64,000 bases of DNA from an uncultured Acidobacteriota bacterium (GTDB lineage: Bacteria > Acidobacteriota > Thermoanaerobaculia > Multivoradales > UBA5704). This document shows positions 47,274-54,472 of the stretch, one piece after another (the first letter of the stretch is position 1; each line of letters begins with the position of its first letter). The stretch is from NCBI GenBank assembly GCA_963700145.1, contig OY969474.1, forward strand, positions 1,216,001 to 1,280,000, in the 5' to 3' direction. The notes under the pieces are model-generated. The model made no database searches. It saw nothing but the letters and a program-made list of their open reading frames with translations, and was not told where the DNA came from. A program made the position numbers and the translations under genes.

Positions 47274-47723
47274 TCAACCGGGTGGGAGCGATTCGAGCTG
47301 CTCGATGTCTGCGAGGTCTTGGAGCCTGCCGGTGGTCCGTTTGTTCTGGATTAGGTGGCGGCGGGACAAGACGGCGGCAGGCTGGCCGGCGAACGTGGTC
47401 TCGACACGCTCCGCCCAAGCCTCCGCGAACTCGACGCCGTCGATTGAGGTCAGGACGTCGATCCGCACGGGGGGCAGTCCAACCTGGAAGATCAGACCGG
47501 GCTGCGTCAGGTCGTGCGCGACCAAGTCCTGTAGGGGGGCGCCGAAAGAGCCGAGCGCATCCAGCACCTTCGAAGCATTGCCGGGCGATGGGTTCACCCA
47601 GACGTCAAGGTCCTTCGTGGCGCGGACGTGTCCATGAGCGGCGAGCGCATGCGCTCCCACGACCAGATACTCAACGCCCGCGGCGTTGAACTCGGCTAAC
47701 AGATCTCTGAAGTCGGGGTTCAT
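47274..47723 (-). CDS. Minimal nucleotidyltransferase (DUF6036-like)
   Basis: YLVVGAHALAAHGHVRATKDLDVWV, RIDVLT and NKRTTGRLQDLAD motifs. Confidence 0.85.
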   Translation of the reverse strand: MNPDFRDLLAEFNAAGVEYLVVGAHALAAHGHVRATKDLDVWVNPSPGNASKVLDALGSFGAPLQDLVAHDLTQPGLIFQVGLPPVRIDVLTSIDGVEFAEAWAERVETTFAGQPAAVLSRRHLIQNKRTTGRLQDLADIEQLESLPPG

Positions 47724-47963: not shown

Positions 47964-49481
47964 TCAAGACTTTTCGGCGGCCAACCGACCTTCCAGCCAG
48001 ATGACTTCGCGTCGCCGACGGCCGTAGCCGCATGCCTCAATCAGATCGCGCGCGCGGGTAAGATGCCTGCTAGCCGTCCTCTTGTCCCCTTGTTGGAGGC
48101 GGGTGCGGGTCCACTCAAGTTGAGCATCGGCTTCAAAAAGGCGCATCTGGCCCCGCTCGGCGATCTCTCCGACCTCGCGGAGATCGCCGGCAGCAGCGGC
48201 CAGATCACCTTGGAGGCGGCGGAGCGCGGCACGCGCAAGGAGGCCCCGGGGAAGCTCATCTTGCTGACCAGCTTGCCGAAGTCCCTCGATCGCTCGGTTT
48301 AGGTACTCGTCGGCCAGGTAGAGCTCCGCCAAGTCGACAGTTAGACCCAGGCCCAGATAGGCACGGCCTAACGTGAGGTGGTAAAGAGCGATATCAAGGA
48401 GCCAGTTCATCGACATGATCTGGCCCAACGTTCGCTGTGCCCGATCGCGGGCCTCTTCACAGGCCTTTTGGTATCGCGCGCGCGACTGATCGTTGCTATT
48501 TATATCGTCTAGCCCTGAACCGTCCTCCGGCTCAGAGCTTCCCAAGAGCAAATCGCAATAGCGAAAGCCCTGCACTGAATGAAGAAGGAGATCCCCAGGC
48601 TGTTGTTGCGAGTGCAGAACCTCCGCCTCCCGGAAGAGAGACCCACTTTCCTTTAGCTTGCCCTCTTGGTGAGCAACATCGGCCAGAACCGTCCGGCTGA
48701 CCACCCTTGCGAACAAATCTCCTGAGCGATCAGCCAGCTCGACACTTTGCCTTCCAGCCTCAACAGCTTCTGCGATCTGGCCGAAGGTCAAGAGTAGCTC
48801 GCACAAATTGCTCGCAGCGCGTGCCGCTTCCGGCCAGCGTGCTTCCTCAATCCGGAGCGCTAGTCCCGCCCGAAGCGGCTGGCCGGCTTCCTGCAGTCTG
48901 CCAAGGGCGCGCAGGATGAATCCAGCCTCGTTTAGTAAGAAGGCCTGAGCCGACGGGGACAGTCGGGGAGAGAGTTGGTTCCAGGGCCGTTCGAAGAAAG
49001 CGGCGAGTGCTGCCAGCTCGACACCAAACGCACCGAGCGTCCTCAGACTAAAACCTTCATTGCCGCGCCGAATTCGCCGTAGGAAAATGTTCTCCAGTAC
49101 CTCTTGCTCTCGGCCAGCCTTGCATCCATGAACGACCGCCGCATAAAGTGGCAGAAGCAGCTCAAGCGTGTCTGGATACTCTTGTGAGGTCTGCCGGTAG
49201 TGCTCGTAAAGTCGCTCATGTCCCAGACGCCAAGCCTCTGGGGCCTCCTCTCGAAGCCGTTTCCCGAAGTGCTCCCGTACGAGAGGATGGGTATCGATCG
49301 GAGCGTTCACGTCACCGGACGCCTCGATCGTTACCAGATGCGCACTTCGAAGCCGCGACAAAGCTTTGCGCCAATCTTGTTCGTCGTTCAAGCCGATCCC
49401 ATCAGTGAGCCCCGAGATGGAAGGGGGGATGCCCCGTTCCCTGTTGAAAGCCGAAAGAGGGAAAGCGGCTCGGTTGATCAT
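47964..49481 (-). pseudogene. C-terminal half (helical/TPR) of the IS-interrupted STAND NTPase gene
   Basis: IDTHPLVREHF, AVVHGC and repeated TPR-like helices; native sequence resumes at 49424. Confidence 0.85.
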
Positions 49482-50883
49482 GCCACGGCCTTGGTGTTCG
49501 TCGGTTCCTCGATCGCCGCGAGCGCGAGCTCGAGAGCCCCGAGGTGCCGATGTCCCTTGACACGCCGGAAGCCAGCCTCCGCGTCACACAGCGCCAGGGC
49601 GACCCAGCGCAGCACCATGTCGCCGCCGCGCCAGCGCTTGACGTTGCGCGTCGTCGTACGGATCGAGCCGATCGTGTTCTCGATCGCGTTGGTCGAGGCG
49701 AGCAACCGGCGCAGAGCGTCGGGCAGCTTCAGCCGCAAGGCGGTGAGGGTCTCGTCGAGGCCCTCGCGCAGGCTGCCCGCGGCGCCCGCGTGGCCTGCGT
49801 GCTCGAGCCAGCGGGCAAGCTGCTCGAGGCGACGCTTGGCGAGGTCGAAGCGAGCGCTCTGGTAGGCCTCGACCATCAGGCGGTCGACCCGGGCTTGGAG
49901 CTGCTTGGGCAGGTGGTCGCGGACGTTGCGGCGCTTGTGGAGCTGGCAGCGCTGGACGTGGGTTGCGTCCCCGAAGACGGCGCGCACGGCCTTGCGCAGC
50001 CCCTTGCCGCCGTCGAGCACCGCCAAGAAGCGCGGCGGCATCGCGAGGCCTCGCTCCAACAGCTCCTGGAGCAGGCCGGTACAGAGCGCCGCGTTCTCCG
50101 TCGCGCCTTCACGCAGGCCGAGCACCCGCTTGGTCCCGTCGCGCGCGATGCCGAGTGCCACCACCAGGGTGTGGCCGGCCACCTCCAGCCCGTCGATCAT
50201 CAGGATCAGGGGCTGGAAGTCCGACAGGTCTCGGCGCAGCCACGCGCCCAGCAGACGACGCGTCCCCGCCACCAGCCGGCGCTGGACCGCACTCTTGCTC
50301 GTCGCGCGCTCCGGCACCGACTCTGCGAGCGGCTCCAAGCTCCGACCGTAGCGGCGCTGCGAGACGCCGACCAGCGCCTGCTCGATCACCCGCTCCGTGA
50401 AGGGATCTTCGTCCTGAAAGGCGCGCACCGAAGGCAAGCTCATCTCGCCACCGTCGCGTCGCCGGACGCGCGGTCGCGGCAGCGCCACCTGGCGGCCACC
50501 CAGCACGAACTCGCTCGCCGTCGAGCCCCAGCGGTACGCCTCGCGGGTCGGATTGCGCCGACGCTTCGGACCGACGACGGCCTCGACCTCGTCCGCGAGC
50601 TGCCGCCCCAGGGCCTCGACGCCCGCGGCGTGAAACAGCTCCAGCAGCCCCTGGCGGCTGGCCTCGATGCCCTCGACCATCGGCCGCAGCAGCGCTTGTA
50701 GCCCGTGGCTGATGCGCGCCGCACGGCCCCCTTGCCACACCACCCGCCTTTCTGCTCTCGTCTTCATCACGGCTCCTTGGCCCCCTGGCGGGGCCGGTTA
50801 TTCGACCAACCCGATTCTCGATCAGGTGGGCCGAGGAGCCGCCTTCACCTCATTGCTCTTTCAACAGCGGGAGGGACAACCCC
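49425..50883 (-). mobile_element. IS256-family insertion sequence, 1459 bp
   Basis: Imperfect 26-bp terminal IRs (GGGGATGCCCCGTTCCCTGTTGAAAG / rc GGGGTTGTCCCTCCCGCTGTTGAAAG); 8-bp target duplication ATGGAAGG at 49417-49424 and 50884-50891. Confidence 0.95.
49478..50770 (-). CDS. IS256 (mutator) family DDE transposase
   Basis: RPRVR, LMIDG, VLDGGKGL, QRCQLHKRRN and STNAIE motifs. Confidence 0.95.
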   Translation of the reverse strand: MMKTRAERRVVWQGGRAARISHGLQALLRPMVEGIEASRQGLLELFHAAGVEALGRQLADEVEAVVGPKRRRNPTREAYRWGSTASEFVLGGRQVALPRPRVRRRDGGEMSLPSVRAFQDEDPFTERVIEQALVGVSQRRYGRSLEPLAESVPERATSKSAVQRRLVAGTRRLLGAWLRRDLSDFQPLILMIDGLEVAGHTLVVALGIARDGTKRVLGLREGATENAALCTGLLQELLERGLAMPPRFLAVLDGGKGLRKAVRAVFGDATHVQRCQLHKRRNVRDHLPKQLQARVDRLMVEAYQSARFDLAKRRLEQLARWLEHAGHAGAAGSLREGLDETLTALRLKLPDALRRLLASTNAIENTIGSIRTTTRNVKRWRGGDMVLRWVALALCDAEAGFRRVKGHRHLGALELALAAIEEPTNTKAVA

Positions 50884-52073
50884 ATGGAAGGTGGCATCCG
50901 CAGGGCAGTGAGCGCCGCTGCCTCAGCCGCGCGATCGAATAGTCCTAGGAGATACAGCACCTCGATCTCTGAGCCCGGCCCGAGCCACATCTCGTATGAG
51001 GTCAATACGCTGTGTGCGTGGTCTTCTCCCTCAATCTCTTCATCCAGAAGTGAAACCTCATGCCGCCGGCGCACGTCACCGCCGCAAACATCCCGCAGAT
51101 AGCTTCCTAGGAGCGTTAGTGCCAAGGCGTGACCACCAAACTCCTTCGCCGTCTGTCTCAGTTCCACCTCTGTACCTATAACCCCGAGGCGCTGTAGCAG
51201 TTCAGCCCCGGCGCTTTCCGGTAGCGCCTCCAGGGTAATTTGTACCACTCCCGCTCTTCCGAGGATATCGCTCACCGAAAGCCGACTCGTGATCAGGCAC
51301 AGGCCGGAATTGGAGGCTGCAAGGTCACGCACCAGTGCCGCGATGGCAGGGTCCTTAAGTCGCCCAGTCTGGACACCAGGCGGGTGCTGGAGGGGCTCAA
51401 GGCCATCGAGGATTAGCAGAGTTCGCCTCTCGCGCACAAGCTCTGCGAGCCTCGCGCCCTTTTCCCAGGGCGAGGGGCTCGGGGTACTCTCGTTCCCCAA
51501 CCAACCCAAGGCGTAATCGACGAACGCGTCTCCTGATGCACCGGCCGTATCCATTCCCTGGCTATAGAAGGACCACCCTAGGATACGCTCGGCATCCCGC
51601 CAGCCTTCGGCACCGAGGCGATCGAGCCAATGATTAACCAGCGCTGACTTCCCCATACCGCCGACCGCAACCAGAACCGCGACATTCACACCCGGGTCGT
51701 TCCATGCCGTATCTAAATGATTGAGCTCTTCCTCTCGGTCGACAAAGGCAACTCCCGATACTGGCAATCTGGCAATCGATACACGAGGCTCGTACCGTTG
51801 GGGTTGTCCCTCCAGGGGCAAAATAAAAGGATTGTGATACTCATCTGAGGCCCTAAAGAGCCAATCGCCGATCTCGCGGGCCGTCCATTGAAGATCTTCA
51901 CGGTCGGCCAGGTCGCTCACATAGCGACCAGCCGCTATGACTTGAGCGAACAAAGTCCTCAATTTTGCAGTTGAGTCCTCGCCAGTCGCATTATCCTCCG
52001 ACGAGAATTTGATCTGCTGCCATAAGCCCTGTAGTTCCCTTGCCGAAAGATGGGCCATTCCTATTTCATCCAT
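50850..52073 (-). pseudogene. N-terminal half of the STAND (NB-ARC/NACHT-like) NTPase gene, interrupted by IS256
   Basis: FVDREEEL, GGMGKS (Walker A), LLILDGLE (Walker B), LITSR and GGHALAL motifs; rejoins the C-terminal half in frame when the IS and one target copy are removed. Confidence 0.88.
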
Positions 52074-53052
52074 GCTCGTCGAAGAACTTCTCAAGCATAC
52101 CGTCAGCGATCACTAAAGCTTGGTGATACCAACTGACCATCCATTCGATCAGCAAGACAGCGCTCGCAGTGTAGGCATCGAAACGTTGAGCCGCTAGAGC
52201 ATCCCGCATTACATCCAGGCAAATCCAAGTACCTAGAAGGAAGTCAAGAAACTCCAGAGACCCAGTTGTTCTCATGACAGCTTCTAACTCGTCAACAATC
52301 CTTCGAAGATCGCTGTCCGATGTGCTAAGAATTCTTCTTGCCGAGTCTCGAGTAGCCACATTTCGGTGCCTTTTGTAGATCTGGAAGGCTTCCTCAAGGA
52401 CTCTTGCGCGCGAGAACATCTGCTCTGCGAGTTTGTGTACGGCCTTCCAACTTCGACCATCTCGTCTGGTCCGTTCAACCTCTGCCGCCGAGATCCCAGG
52501 AACCCTAGATGAAAATACGCTCTGGGCCCCCCTGGAATCGGTAATACGAACCTCGGATCCTCGAAACAAAATGGAGAAAGATCGATGGTCAGGTAGATAG
52601 TCCGCGAAATATCTATTGATAATCGTTGGGTAGTTCCAAAGCTCCTCTAGAAGGTCTTCCCAAGCCCAGACTGAGACCGGGAAGGACCCGCGCTCCACTT
52701 GGATGCCGCTAATCTCACGCACAAACTCTTGGACGGAGACGCTGCGTGGCGCTGTGGTAGCTACCGTTAGCTTTCTGAGCCCTGGTTGGAAACGCAGAGC
52801 AGCATGGACCTCGTCTTCAACCTCTTGCCTATCGAGCTGTTTTCCTTTGCTCTTGGCTTTGCATTGCACGCCTTCCCATTGAGGCCCTCGGTCAGGCTGG
52901 CCAAAAATGTCGACACCCCTCTGAGCCTCGCCCTGCCGACCGTGTTTTTGTGCACCTGGATCGCTCCACATCCGTCTAAACAGGTCGCAGCAGAGATCCT
53001 CGAAATCCTGCCAGCGATCCGGCGGAGGCAGAGCGACCTTTAGCGGGGGCAT
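52066..53052 (-). CDS. Mrr-like PD-(D/E)xK restriction-endonuclease-fold protein with unknown helical C-terminus
   Basis: WQDFEDLC...GRQGEAQRGVDI...GVQCK motif; overlaps the STAND start; AT-richer than the backbone. Confidence 0.8.
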   Translation of the reverse strand: MPPLKVALPPPDRWQDFEDLCCDLFRRMWSDPGAQKHGRQGEAQRGVDIFGQPDRGPQWEGVQCKAKSKGKQLDRQEVEDEVHAALRFQPGLRKLTVATTAPRSVSVQEFVREISGIQVERGSFPVSVWAWEDLLEELWNYPTIINRYFADYLPDHRSFSILFRGSEVRITDSRGAQSVFSSRVPGISAAEVERTRRDGRSWKAVHKLAEQMFSRARVLEEAFQIYKRHRNVATRDSARRILSTSDSDLRRIVDELEAVMRTTGSLEFLDFLLGTWICLDVMRDALAAQRFDAYTASAVLLIEWMVSWYHQALVIADGMLEKFFDEHG

Positions 53053-53158: not shown

Positions 53159-54472
53159 CTAGGTGGGCTCAACTGGGAAAGAGGCACCATCCGCCAGAAT
53201 CATTTTCAGCATCGCGATGTTGTCGCGGTGGCCGGTCAGCTTGGCGGTGACCTTGCCGCGGATCGGATAGCCCAGGAGATAGAAGTCGCCGAGGATGTCG
53301 AGGATCTTGTGGCGGGCGAACTCGTCGGGGAAGCGGAGCTCGGTGTTGACGATCTCGTCCTCGCCGACCAGGATGAAGTTGTCGAGCCGCCCGCCGGAGC
53401 CCAGCCCCAGCTCGTTCATCATCTTGAGGTCCTTCAGAAAGCCGAAGGTGCGGGCCGGCGCGATCTCCTCCTGGTAGCGGGCGAAGTCGGTGAGCGTGAA
53501 GTCGTAGCGCTGCTCCCCGACCGGCGGCGGGTAGCGCAGCTCGTAGGAGACCGCGAAGCCGTCGTAGGGCTCGAGCACCAAGCTCTTGCCGCCCGCGCCG
53601 CCGACCTCGTAGCGCCGGTCGATCACGATCTCCTGCCGCGGCGCGTCCTGGTCGACCACGCCGACCTCGTCGAGCACGCGGCAGAACTCCAGCGCCGAGC
53701 CGTCGAGGACCGGCAGCTCGCCGTGCACCTTGACCAGCAGGTTTCCCACCCCGGCGGCGTGGAGGGCGGAGAGGAAGTGCTCCACCGTGCGCACGCTCTC
53801 GCCGTCGGTCGAGAGCGTCGTGGCGTAGTCGGTGTCGGCGACGGCGCGGACGTGCGCCGGGATCTCCGCCCCGGCCGGCAGGGTCACGAAGTGGACGCCG
53901 GTGTCGGGCGGCAGCGGCTGGATGACCATGCCGGTGCGCCCGCCGGAGTGGAGGCCCAGGCCGTAGATCACCGTGCTGTGGCGAATGGTGCGCTGCGGCC
54001 GGTCGCTGGTGCGCAGCAGCGCCAGCGGCGGCGGCGGCTCGAGCTGCCGCTCCTCGGCGCGCGACGGCCCGGCCGGCGCCGGCAGCGCCGCCTCGCCGCC
54101 CAGGCTGCGCTTCATCGCCAGCGCGCCGGCCACGGCGTCCACGGCGCGCCGGTACGAGAGCGGCTTCTCGAGATAGTCGAAGGCGCCCATCTTGATCGCC
54201 TTGACCGCGGTCGCCGTGGTGCCGTGTCCCGACATCATGACGACCGCCGCCGCCGGGTCGGACTCGCGCAGCGCCTGCAGGGTCTCGAGCCCGTCGCGGT
54301 CGGCCAGCCAGACGTCGAGGAAGACCACGTCCGGCCGCGCCTCGGCGTAGAGCCGGAGCGCGTCGGCGCCGCTGCGCGTGGCGAGGGTGCGGTACCCCTC
54401 GTCGGCGAGGATCCCCGACAGGGTGGTCAGGATCCCCGGCTCGTCGTCGACGATCAGCACCAGGTCGCTCAT
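53159..54472 (-). CDS. lpxC: Response-regulator receiver domain fused to UDP-3-O-acyl-GlcNAc deacetylase LpxC
   Basis: REC motifs LIVDDE, VFLDVWL, MMSGHG and LEKP; LpxC motifs QRTI, GLGLHSG, TVEHFLSAL, ELPVLDGSA, IAPARTFGF, HKILDILGD and GH. Confidence 0.93.
   Translation of the reverse strand: MSDLVLIVDDEPGILTTLSGILADEGYRTLATRSGADALRLYAEARPDVVFLDVWLADRDGLETLQALRESDPAAAVVMMSGHGTTATAVKAIKMGAFDYLEKPLSYRRAVDAVAGALAMKRSLGGEAALPAPAGPSRAEERQLEPPPPLALLRTSDRPQRTIRHSTVIYGLGLHSGGRTGMVIQPLPPDTGVHFVTLPAGAEIPAHVRAVADTDYATTLSTDGESVRTVEHFLSALHAAGVGNLLVKVHGELPVLDGSALEFCRVLDEVGVVDQDAPRQEIVIDRRYEVGGAGGKSLVLEPYDGFAVSYELRYPPPVGEQRYDFTLTDFARYQEEIAPARTFGFLKDLKMMNELGLGSGGRLDNFILVGEDEIVNTELRFPDEFARHKILDILGDFYLLGYPIRGKVTAKLTGHRDNIAMLKMILADGASFPVEPT

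Follow-up and report, generated by a model that had tools for sequence, protein, structure and literature searches.

A free-standing Mrr-like nuclease and an interrupted STAND-TPR protein in an Acidobacteriota genome carry a candidate heterotypic adaptor pair

The window analysed here is a 64,000-nucleotide stretch of contig OY969474.1 from an uncultured Acidobacteriota bacterium, and between its positions 47,964 and 53,052 lie two neighbouring minus-strand genes, one for an Mrr-like nuclease and one for a STAND NTPase with a tetratricopeptide repeat (TPR) sensor, that form a candidate NLR-like defence module. The upstream gene (53052..52066) encodes an effector of 328 aa in which an Mrr-like PD-(D/E)xK nuclease head (residues 1 to ~150; 52603..53052; Pfam Mrr_cat) is followed by a C-terminal domain of 178 aa (52069..52602; AlphaFold2 model and alignment A4), which we refer to as nucC and propose as a docking module. 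The downstream gene begins with a helical domain of ~90 aa (51780..52073; alignment A3), hereafter the N-domain and the proposed receptor of nucC, and continues into the NTPase module (50886..51779; recognised by its Walker motifs and family identity), beyond which it is interrupted by an IS256-family insertion sequence (IS) of 1459 bp (49425..50883); the 3' part of the gene resumes beyond the IS (47964..49416, stop codon at 47964-47966) and encodes a winged-helix/helical region and the TPR sensor, as judged from TPR matches and from colinearity with an intact homologue, P0044. All parts named in a preliminary description of this DNA, made from the letters and a list of open reading frames (ORFs), lie where it had placed them on the minus strand according to the ORF list and a Pfam scan.

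The preliminary description had also called the nuclease a separate and overlapping upstream gene, and the junction bears out the tight coupling in one of two forms. The nuclease start (M47) is consistent with the starts of its homologues, and the STAND gene has three candidate starts, a TTG, ATG 52073 and ATG 52058. The nuclease stop codon TGA (52068-52066) overlaps the first of these ATG codons (ATGGATGA), giving an 8-nt overlap, and ATG 52058 lies 7 nt past the nuclease stop; the latter is the more likely start on the basis of its alignment with the start Met of four relatives. A scan for promoters and terminators, which was uninformative overall, gave no terminator-like site on the coding strand between the two genes.

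The IS carries a transposase gene (50770..49478, minus strand) with a match to the Mutator-type family Transposase_mut (Pfam, E 4.5e-33). Its terminal inverted repeats are imperfect, and an 8-bp target duplication, ATGGAAGG, borders it as a direct repeat at 49417..49424 and 50884..50891. The element is present in 21 full-length copies of 100% identity in its own genome (5.46 Mb), and the limits given above were set by the extent common to these copies. Transposase type, terminal inverted repeats, 8-bp duplication and multiple copies together place the element in the IS256 family, in which the target duplication usually measures 8-9 bp. Because the 21 copies are identical, they point to a recent burst of transposition. 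Excising the IS together with one copy of the duplication joins the native 403 aa of the 5' part (ending at 50886) in frame to the 484 aa of the 3' part (ending at 47967) through ...LRMPPS-I-SGLTDG..., and the restored protein has 887 aa from the TTG, 880 aa from ATG 52073 or 875 aa from ATG 52058, in agreement with the ~880 aa proposed in the preliminary description. Moreover, residues of P0044 (945 aa) up to 447 align with the 5' part and residues 446-942 with the 3' part; because the restored protein is colinear with this homologue across the junction, the gene has no other lesion. The IS has split the STAND protein between NTPase and sensor and left the nuclease gene intact, and the module has recently been switched off.

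The locus forms a low-GC island with a GC content of 0.51-0.61 and a GC content at third codon positions (GC3) of 0.50-0.63, set among flanking SDR and LpxC genes with a GC3 of 0.97-0.99. The module is a recent import that is currently broken in the genome of the window. Within the locus, GC is lowest in nucC (0.51) and the N-domain (0.52), intermediate in the nuclease head (0.57) and highest in the NTPase and TPR regions (0.60-0.61), a pattern that would fit an adaptor pair swapped in as one contiguous cassette, the segments being short.

The nuclease head matches Mrr_cat with E 1.6e-6 and 28.7 bits against a Pfam cut-off of 21, and keeps the family-conserved residues E18, D48 and Q63-x-K65. 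At the columns of D48 and Q63-C-K65, 34-35 of the 35 sequences in the family agree, and we take D48 and Q63-x-K65 to be the catalytic residues. Relatives of near-equal length align to the head only. The head is 46-57% identical to heads that are fused directly onto the same STAND-TPR family (P0044, P0054, P0082, P0104 and the fragment P0018), with ~40 residues between nuclease and NTPase. Among 61 related genomes sampled, 15 contain a match to the nuclease domain, and every match except that of the window covers only query residues 1 to ~155 (in one case to 186), mostly within open frames of ~900-1300 aa. Close relatives, therefore, do carry the same nuclease family fused to the same STAND-TPR family, much as the preliminary description had expected of bacterial NLRs, and because this fused arrangement is the norm, the split form in the window needs explaining.

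The restored STAND protein has the layout of an Avs-type STAND NTPase with a TPR-like sensor. Its Walker A and B motifs read GGMGKS and LLILDGLE, its 5' part has weak AAA_16/NACHT matches, and its 3' part matches TPR_MalT (E 9.5e-8) and TPR_12 (E 1.8e-6), all below the Pfam cut-offs. Of 8000 candidate proteins of 707-2015 aa that were scored against the 5' part, 3008 reached E<=1e-3, and the STAND protein of the window is strongly colinear with this family. The members of this family share a body of NTPase and TPR that is 45-67% identical (59-67% between the NTPase module of the window and the family) and differ at their N-termini. In 53 loci, Pfam assigned the N-terminal region to TIR/SEFIR in 38, to PNP_UDP, DUF4062, Mrr_cat and EAD7 in two each, to a helix-turn-helix (HTH) in one and to nothing in six; because the sample was seeded with an EAD7-bearing member, it is not unbiased. 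TIR, PNP and Mrr heads thus occur fused onto this STAND family. The same family also includes a homotypic case at locus L016, where an EAD7-STAND-TPR gene is immediately preceded by the gene of a caspase that ends in an EAD7. None of the solved chains in the PDB matched the STAND protein of the window by sequence. We also observed a paralogue in the same genome (P0056), a SEFIR/TIR-STAND-TPR protein of 964 aa whose NTPase is 61% identical and whose head matches the PADLOC model bSEFIR at 2.3e-44.

In contrast to the nuclease head and the STAND body, nucC and the N-domain belong to no family that we could recognise. For nucC (~170 aa), AlphaFold2 run on a five-sequence alignment gave a confident model with a predicted local distance difference test score (pLDDT) of 90.9 and a predicted template modelling score (pTM) of 0.86, in which a three-strand beta-meander is followed by a four-helix bundle. 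Profile searches assigned nucC to no Pfam (E<=1), NCBIfam or PDB family, Pfam found no family in the corresponding region of its relatives, the PDB yielded no credible match by sequence or by profile, and none by Foldseek of the model at E<=0.001; VIA-align returned generic or designed helical bundles only, with Z<=11, which falls within what the tool regards as noise for helical folds. When the last 178 residues were searched exhaustively with HMMER against 1.84 billion representatives, only four other proteins came back, of which one has PNP_UDP followed by nucC (P0154), one TIR_2 followed by nucC (P0157) and one a bacterial Death-like domain, bDLD3, followed by nucC (P0155), and the fourth is a 93-aa nucC fragment (P0156).

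To place both domains in their genomic context, 185,579 species genomes were scanned with a degenerate nucleotide pattern encoding the invariant positions in the last helix of nucC, and the resulting loci (at least 120 matches) were screened with a nucC hidden Markov model (HMM). A second scan used the N-domain pattern A-R-E-h-x-D-x-h-F-x4-E-Y and gave a complete list of 54 stretches. Because both patterns require an exact motif, divergent or partner-less members could have been missed. Among the matches listed, the nucC scan contained two real loci, one on a contig of an ANME-1 archaeon (L108; nucC E 1.8e-25) and one in a metagenome-assembled genome (MAG) labelled Bifidobacteriaceae (L090; E 2.7e-20), and in both the first ~100 residues encoded by the next gene resemble the STAND N-domain. 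Conversely, the N-domain scan led to two cyanobacterial MAGs, of Trichodesmium (L203; nucC E 2.8e-17) and of Prochloraceae (L231; nucC E 5.7e-14), in which the gene preceding that of the N-domain carries nucC. All four sequences, with nucC HMM E-values from 1.8e-25 to 5.7e-14, lay outside the training set. The nucC gene is directly upstream of the N-domain gene on the same strand in 4/4 of these IS-free loci, irrespective of the direction of the search, with a 4-nt overlap in L108 and L090, an 11-nt gap in L203 and a 1-nt gap in L231; counting the window, the pair is adjacent in 5/5 loci with context, a count that excludes P0154, P0155, P0156 and P0157, for which genomic context was not retrievable. 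The preliminary description had suggested looking for IS-free homologous loci and had allowed for the case that the two genes never occur together elsewhere; four such loci exist, and the pair is adjacent in each of them. In the same screen, weak N-domain HMM matches at L241, L246, L237, L245 and L253 were set aside as unrelated proteins (e.g. Lrp/AsnC-like regulators) that contain the motif by chance.

The heads that precede nucC differ from locus to locus. Besides those already mentioned, the genome scans added SMEK_N (L090), DUF676/alpha-beta-hydrolase (L203), EAD8 with PNP_UDP (L231) and an unassigned region of ~150 aa (L108), bringing the total to at least nine nucC proteins, five including that of the window from the 1.84 billion representatives and at least four from the motif scans of the species genomes. 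In 8/8 full-length proteins among the matches listed nucC is C-terminal, and it is never fused to a STAND protein. The possibility raised in the preliminary description, that homologues are a single fused ORF, is thus not borne out (0/8). An alignment of nine nucC domains (A4) has L163, A166, D167, L170 and E171 invariant, all in the last helix, with the motif L..AD..LE.YF. Profile searches found only the nucC of the window in 401 genomes of its phylum (three other matches were weak, E>=1e-3) and only the genome's own copy in a 401-genome sample of the phylum of genome G451, and there is one nucC copy in each of the four other pair-bearing genomes; single copies, together with the lack of further ones in the two samples, indicate that the pair is rare and patchily distributed. 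A locus search seeded with alignment A2 gave nothing in metagenome or genome contigs, and a protein atlas gave no usable match for nucC or the N-domain.

The N-domain had been described from the window alone by the strings AGRYVSD, DREDLQ, AREIG and DEY..P, and these turn out to be the conserved signature of the domain: in alignment A3 (five N-domains) W18, G49, R58, Q62, A65, R66, E67, D70, F73, E78, Y79 and I84 are invariant, giving the pattern W, G, R..LQ..ARE..D..F....EY....I and the motif R..LQ..AREIGD.IF..T.EYP. The domain belongs to no Pfam (E<=1), NCBIfam or PDB family, and a word-based search among proteins of 707-2015 aa found no other member. Beyond L108 and L090, an HMM built from three sequences had real matches only in L203 (E 2e-18) and L231 (E 2.6e-16), both outside its training set, among the 54 stretches. 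Three different types of core are headed by the domain. In L090 it precedes the same STAND-TPR family as in the window, with 40% identity through N-domain and NTPase; in L108 an NB-ARC-like NTPase plus TPR, split over two ORFs; in L203 an NB-ARC protein, to which BLASTP aligns the N-domain alone (35% over 83 residues, E 3e-12); and in L231 a helical protein of 421 aa without a Pfam match that is followed by an nSTAND1-WD40 gene. The idea, raised by a BLAST extension, that the N-domain is the relic of a fused nuclease was rejected, because the domain shows no similarity to a 35-sequence nuclease profile (no match by hmmsearch; hhalign probability 0.5%).

Several features of these loci are recorded here in their own right. 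The surroundings in L090 (2523-13191) look like a defence island, with a SNF2-family helicase of 1167 aa upstream of the pair and a second STAND-TPR gene (1098 aa), which has a different, unassigned N-terminal head, directly downstream. L231 (909-8114, minus strand) consists of three genes encoding EAD8-PNP-nucC, the 421-aa N-domain protein and the nSTAND1-WD40 protein (1299 aa), the last of which showed no EAD8 within its first 120 residues. In L108 (1155-3968) the two STAND ORFs (395 aa and 476 aa) lie ~195 nt apart, and this split could result from disruption, a sequencing error or an unrecognised insert. Outside the module in the window, the low-GC island also contains, shortly beyond the 3' end of the STAND gene, an ORF of 149 aa (47274-47723, minus strand; GC3 0.79) that PADLOC matches weakly to the AbiEii nucleotidyltransferase (E 7e-4) and that has no match in the Pfam scan; it may be what is left of a toxin-antitoxin or abortive-infection system in the same island. 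On the other side, the host gene flanking the island (53159-54472, minus strand) fuses a response-regulator receiver domain (E 4.8e-28) to an LpxC deacetylase (E 6.1e-81), a combination that is unusual in the enzyme for the committed step in lipid A synthesis.

The preliminary description had proposed that the nuclease is recruited in trans through an adaptor-adaptor interaction of the kind made by effector-associated domains (EADs) or Death-like domains. The two domains, however, are unrelated: hhalign gave a probability of 0.05% for A3 (five N-domains) against A4 (nine nucC domains) and of 0.17% for A1 (nucC) against the N-domain, there is no BLASTP similarity between them, and neither has a Pfam EAD or Death match. 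In addition, nucC, modelled with three strands and a four-helix bundle, probably does not have the six-helix Death fold, and the model of the N-domain is too poor (pLDDT 53) for a fold search. The idea of portable, coupled modules is supported by the adjacency in 4/4 other loci with swapped heads and cores; the homotypic nature of the coupling is what we give up, and a Death-like one finds no support.

We consider it probable that the two genes are a horizontally acquired NLR-like (STAND-TPR) conflict or defence module in which the nuclease is recruited in trans through a heterotypic pair formed by nucC and the N-domain, a reading that appears largely supported by comparative genomics. Specifically, the four-helix-bundle domain nucC would dock on the ~90-aa helical N-domain of the STAND protein, and the TPR region would bind a foreign, probably phage, protein. 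The NTPase would then oligomerise, in line with solved Avs proteins, the N-domains arrayed in this way would gather several nucC-tagged nucleases, and their proximity would activate them to cut DNA. Activation by proximity is consistent with the fused relatives, which hold the same nuclease at that position of the NTPase. The analysis shows the anatomy, the fused relatives, the adjacency of nucC and the N-domain in five loci of distant taxa and the occurrence of each domain with several partners; binding, nuclease activation and defence in this module are inferred.

A number of observations weigh against this reading. It builds on five loci only, with four further nucC proteins outside the context count, and in L231 the N-domain sits on an intermediary protein and not on the NTPase itself. 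Because the two domains are unrelated, the homotypic logic of EADs is inapplicable, and the docking site could lie elsewhere on the STAND protein. The AlphaFold2 single-sequence model of the N-domain is of low confidence (pLDDT 53, as noted above). A complex prediction for nucC (A1) and STAND residues 8-112, in which the fold of the partner was itself uncertain, scored 0.00 where the mark is 0.32 and weighs neither way on binding. The nuclease has S104 where 33/35 family sequences have D, and E42 where 33/35 have Q. PADLOC gave no match for either half of the STAND protein or for the full-length members P0044, P0054 and P0110, so that the role of the family in defence is deduced from architecture. 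Finally, the combinations of bDLD3 with nucC (P0155) and of an unassigned region with nucC (L108) can be read as nucC being the effector.

The same co-occurrence would fit an interaction that restrains the nuclease instead of recruiting it, the N-domain of the resting STAND protein keeping the effector sequestered or inhibited, as an antitoxin does its toxin, until activation releases it. Nucleases, TIR domains and PNP enzymes that stand free have to be kept in check, the two genes are coupled in translation, and the IS leaves an open frame for the N-domain and the NTPase half beside an intact nuclease gene, an arrangement that the cell tolerates. We nevertheless regard restraint as unlikely, because the fused relatives tether the same nuclease at the N-terminus of the NTPase, because solved Avs nucleases at that position are activated by oligomerisation in the account given by a preprint (10.64898/2026.01.04.697583), and because the EAD7 precedent within the same STAND family (L016) is taken as recruitment in those parts of the literature that bear on it. 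Slightly less likely still is that nucC is itself effector or regulatory, for example an oligomerising or membrane-active bundle, so that the protein would be a two-headed effector linked to the STAND protein by some other contact. Such a function would suit the generic four-helix-bundle fold, the L108 protein without a recognisable enzyme head and P0155, if the EAD principle is applied to its bDLD3; against it, the enzymatic or nuclease-like heads recognised in front of nucC are of six different kinds, nucC is always C-terminal, its best-conserved part is a single terminal helix (L..AD..LE.YF) with no catalytic-looking motif, and an N-domain gene is adjacent in 5/5 loci with context. Although the recently acquired island has already been hit by an IS and fused nuclease-STAND genes are the common form, it is very improbable that the neighbourhood is accidental or decaying, i.e. 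an independent restriction-like gene or a broken nuclease-STAND fusion with no functional coupling, because the pair recurs in four loci of distant taxa with different heads and cores, the N-domain resembles no nuclease in the 35-sequence profile (hmmsearch, hhalign), and the IS is the only interruption in either reading frame.

We know of no experimental demonstration that an effector is recruited in trans to a bacterial NLR-like sensor. Such recruitment has been predicted from homotypic EADs and Death-like domains, as set out in the pertinent sections of Kaur et al. (eLife 2020, 2021). Returning to recruitment through nucC and the N-domain, the five loci define a compact pair, ~170 aa and ~90 aa, with sharply conserved motifs, and thereby offer a directly testable binding hypothesis. 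Because neither domain is a copy of the other, their interfaces must have co-evolved, and the pair might serve as an orthogonal connector for wiring effectors to sensors. The case also indicates that context can assign roles to domains too rare for family databases. A broader proposal, which is plausible but on balance somewhat doubtful, is that prokaryotic NLR-like immunity has in nucC and the N-domain its first described lock-and-key adaptor pair, portable enough to connect any effector to any oligomerising core. If so, the heads would include nuclease, TIR, PNP, lipase-like hydrolase and SMEK, the cores would include STAND-TPR, NB-ARC and, via a helical intermediary, nSTAND1-WD40, and the bDLD3-nucC protein would be a bipartite bridge comparable to FADD or ASC. 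FADD and ASC are adaptors in animal cell-death signalling.

Among known systems, Avs and bacterial NLR-like proteins reportedly carry fused N-terminal nucleases, a finding associated with Gao and colleagues in 2022. The module in the window resembles Avs in combining an effector, a STAND NTPase and a TPR-like sensor, and differs in that the effector is a separate ORF and not part of the same polypeptide, and in that no curated defence model (PADLOC) matches either half of its STAND protein. In solved Avs proteins the N-terminal nucleases are activated by oligomerisation, as summarised in the preprint cited above. Closer in sequence are the fused Mrr-like nuclease-STAND-TPR proteins (P0044, P0054, P0082 and P0104), which share the nuclease family of the window (46-57% identity) and, in P0044, the NTPase and TPR family (59% and 53% identity, respectively); where these relatives have a linker of ~40 residues, the window has nucC (~170 aa), a gene boundary and the ~90-aa N-domain.

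For an adaptor of the heterotypic kind the closest published parallel is GAAD, an alpha-helical effector domain for which direct docking onto a component of the core is proposed in the section of Kaur et al. (2020, PMC7159879) that introduces it. The window pair is like GAAD in being a predicted heterotypic adaptor. By the same section, however, GAAD is specific for GAP1/DO-GTPase, whereas the cores of the window type are STAND NTPases. The Pfam scans gave no sequence relation to GAAD, the presence of a GAAD model in the Pfam copy used being unchecked. No description of a heterotypic STAND adaptor was found within the literature searched, and four N-domain motif strings had 0 matches in the supplements of the two eLife papers, with one file of the 2021 paper outside the search and another name for the domain possible.

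The EADs are the class against which the pair is best measured. As portrayed in the relevant passages of Kaur et al. (eLife 2020, PMC7159879), an EAD is a small non-enzymatic domain that occurs on many effector heads, which are found elsewhere as direct fusions to the core, and again at the N-terminus of the core in the neighbouring gene, the same domain being present on both partners, i.e. homotypic; the corresponding passages of Kaur, Burroughs, Iyer and Aravind (eLife 2020, 2021) have EAD1-11 and bDLD couple effectors to STAND and other cores. The window departs from this class in that its two domains are mutually unrelated and not homotypic copies, in that neither they nor their counterparts in relatives match the EAD or bDLD models of Pfam and NCBIfam, and in that nucC with its ~170 aa and beta-meander is larger than the Pfam EAD models (EAD7, 62 positions; EAD8, 96). 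It agrees with the class in that diverse heads (Mrr-like, TIR, PNP_UDP, SMEK_N, DUF676, EAD8+PNP and bDLD3) share one domain, the TIR, PNP and Mrr heads being fused elsewhere to this STAND family, and in that the partners are encoded by adjacent genes with the partner domain at the N-terminus of the core (5/5). On this comparison, the arrangement appears to be EAD-style coupling through two previously undescribed and mutually unrelated domains.

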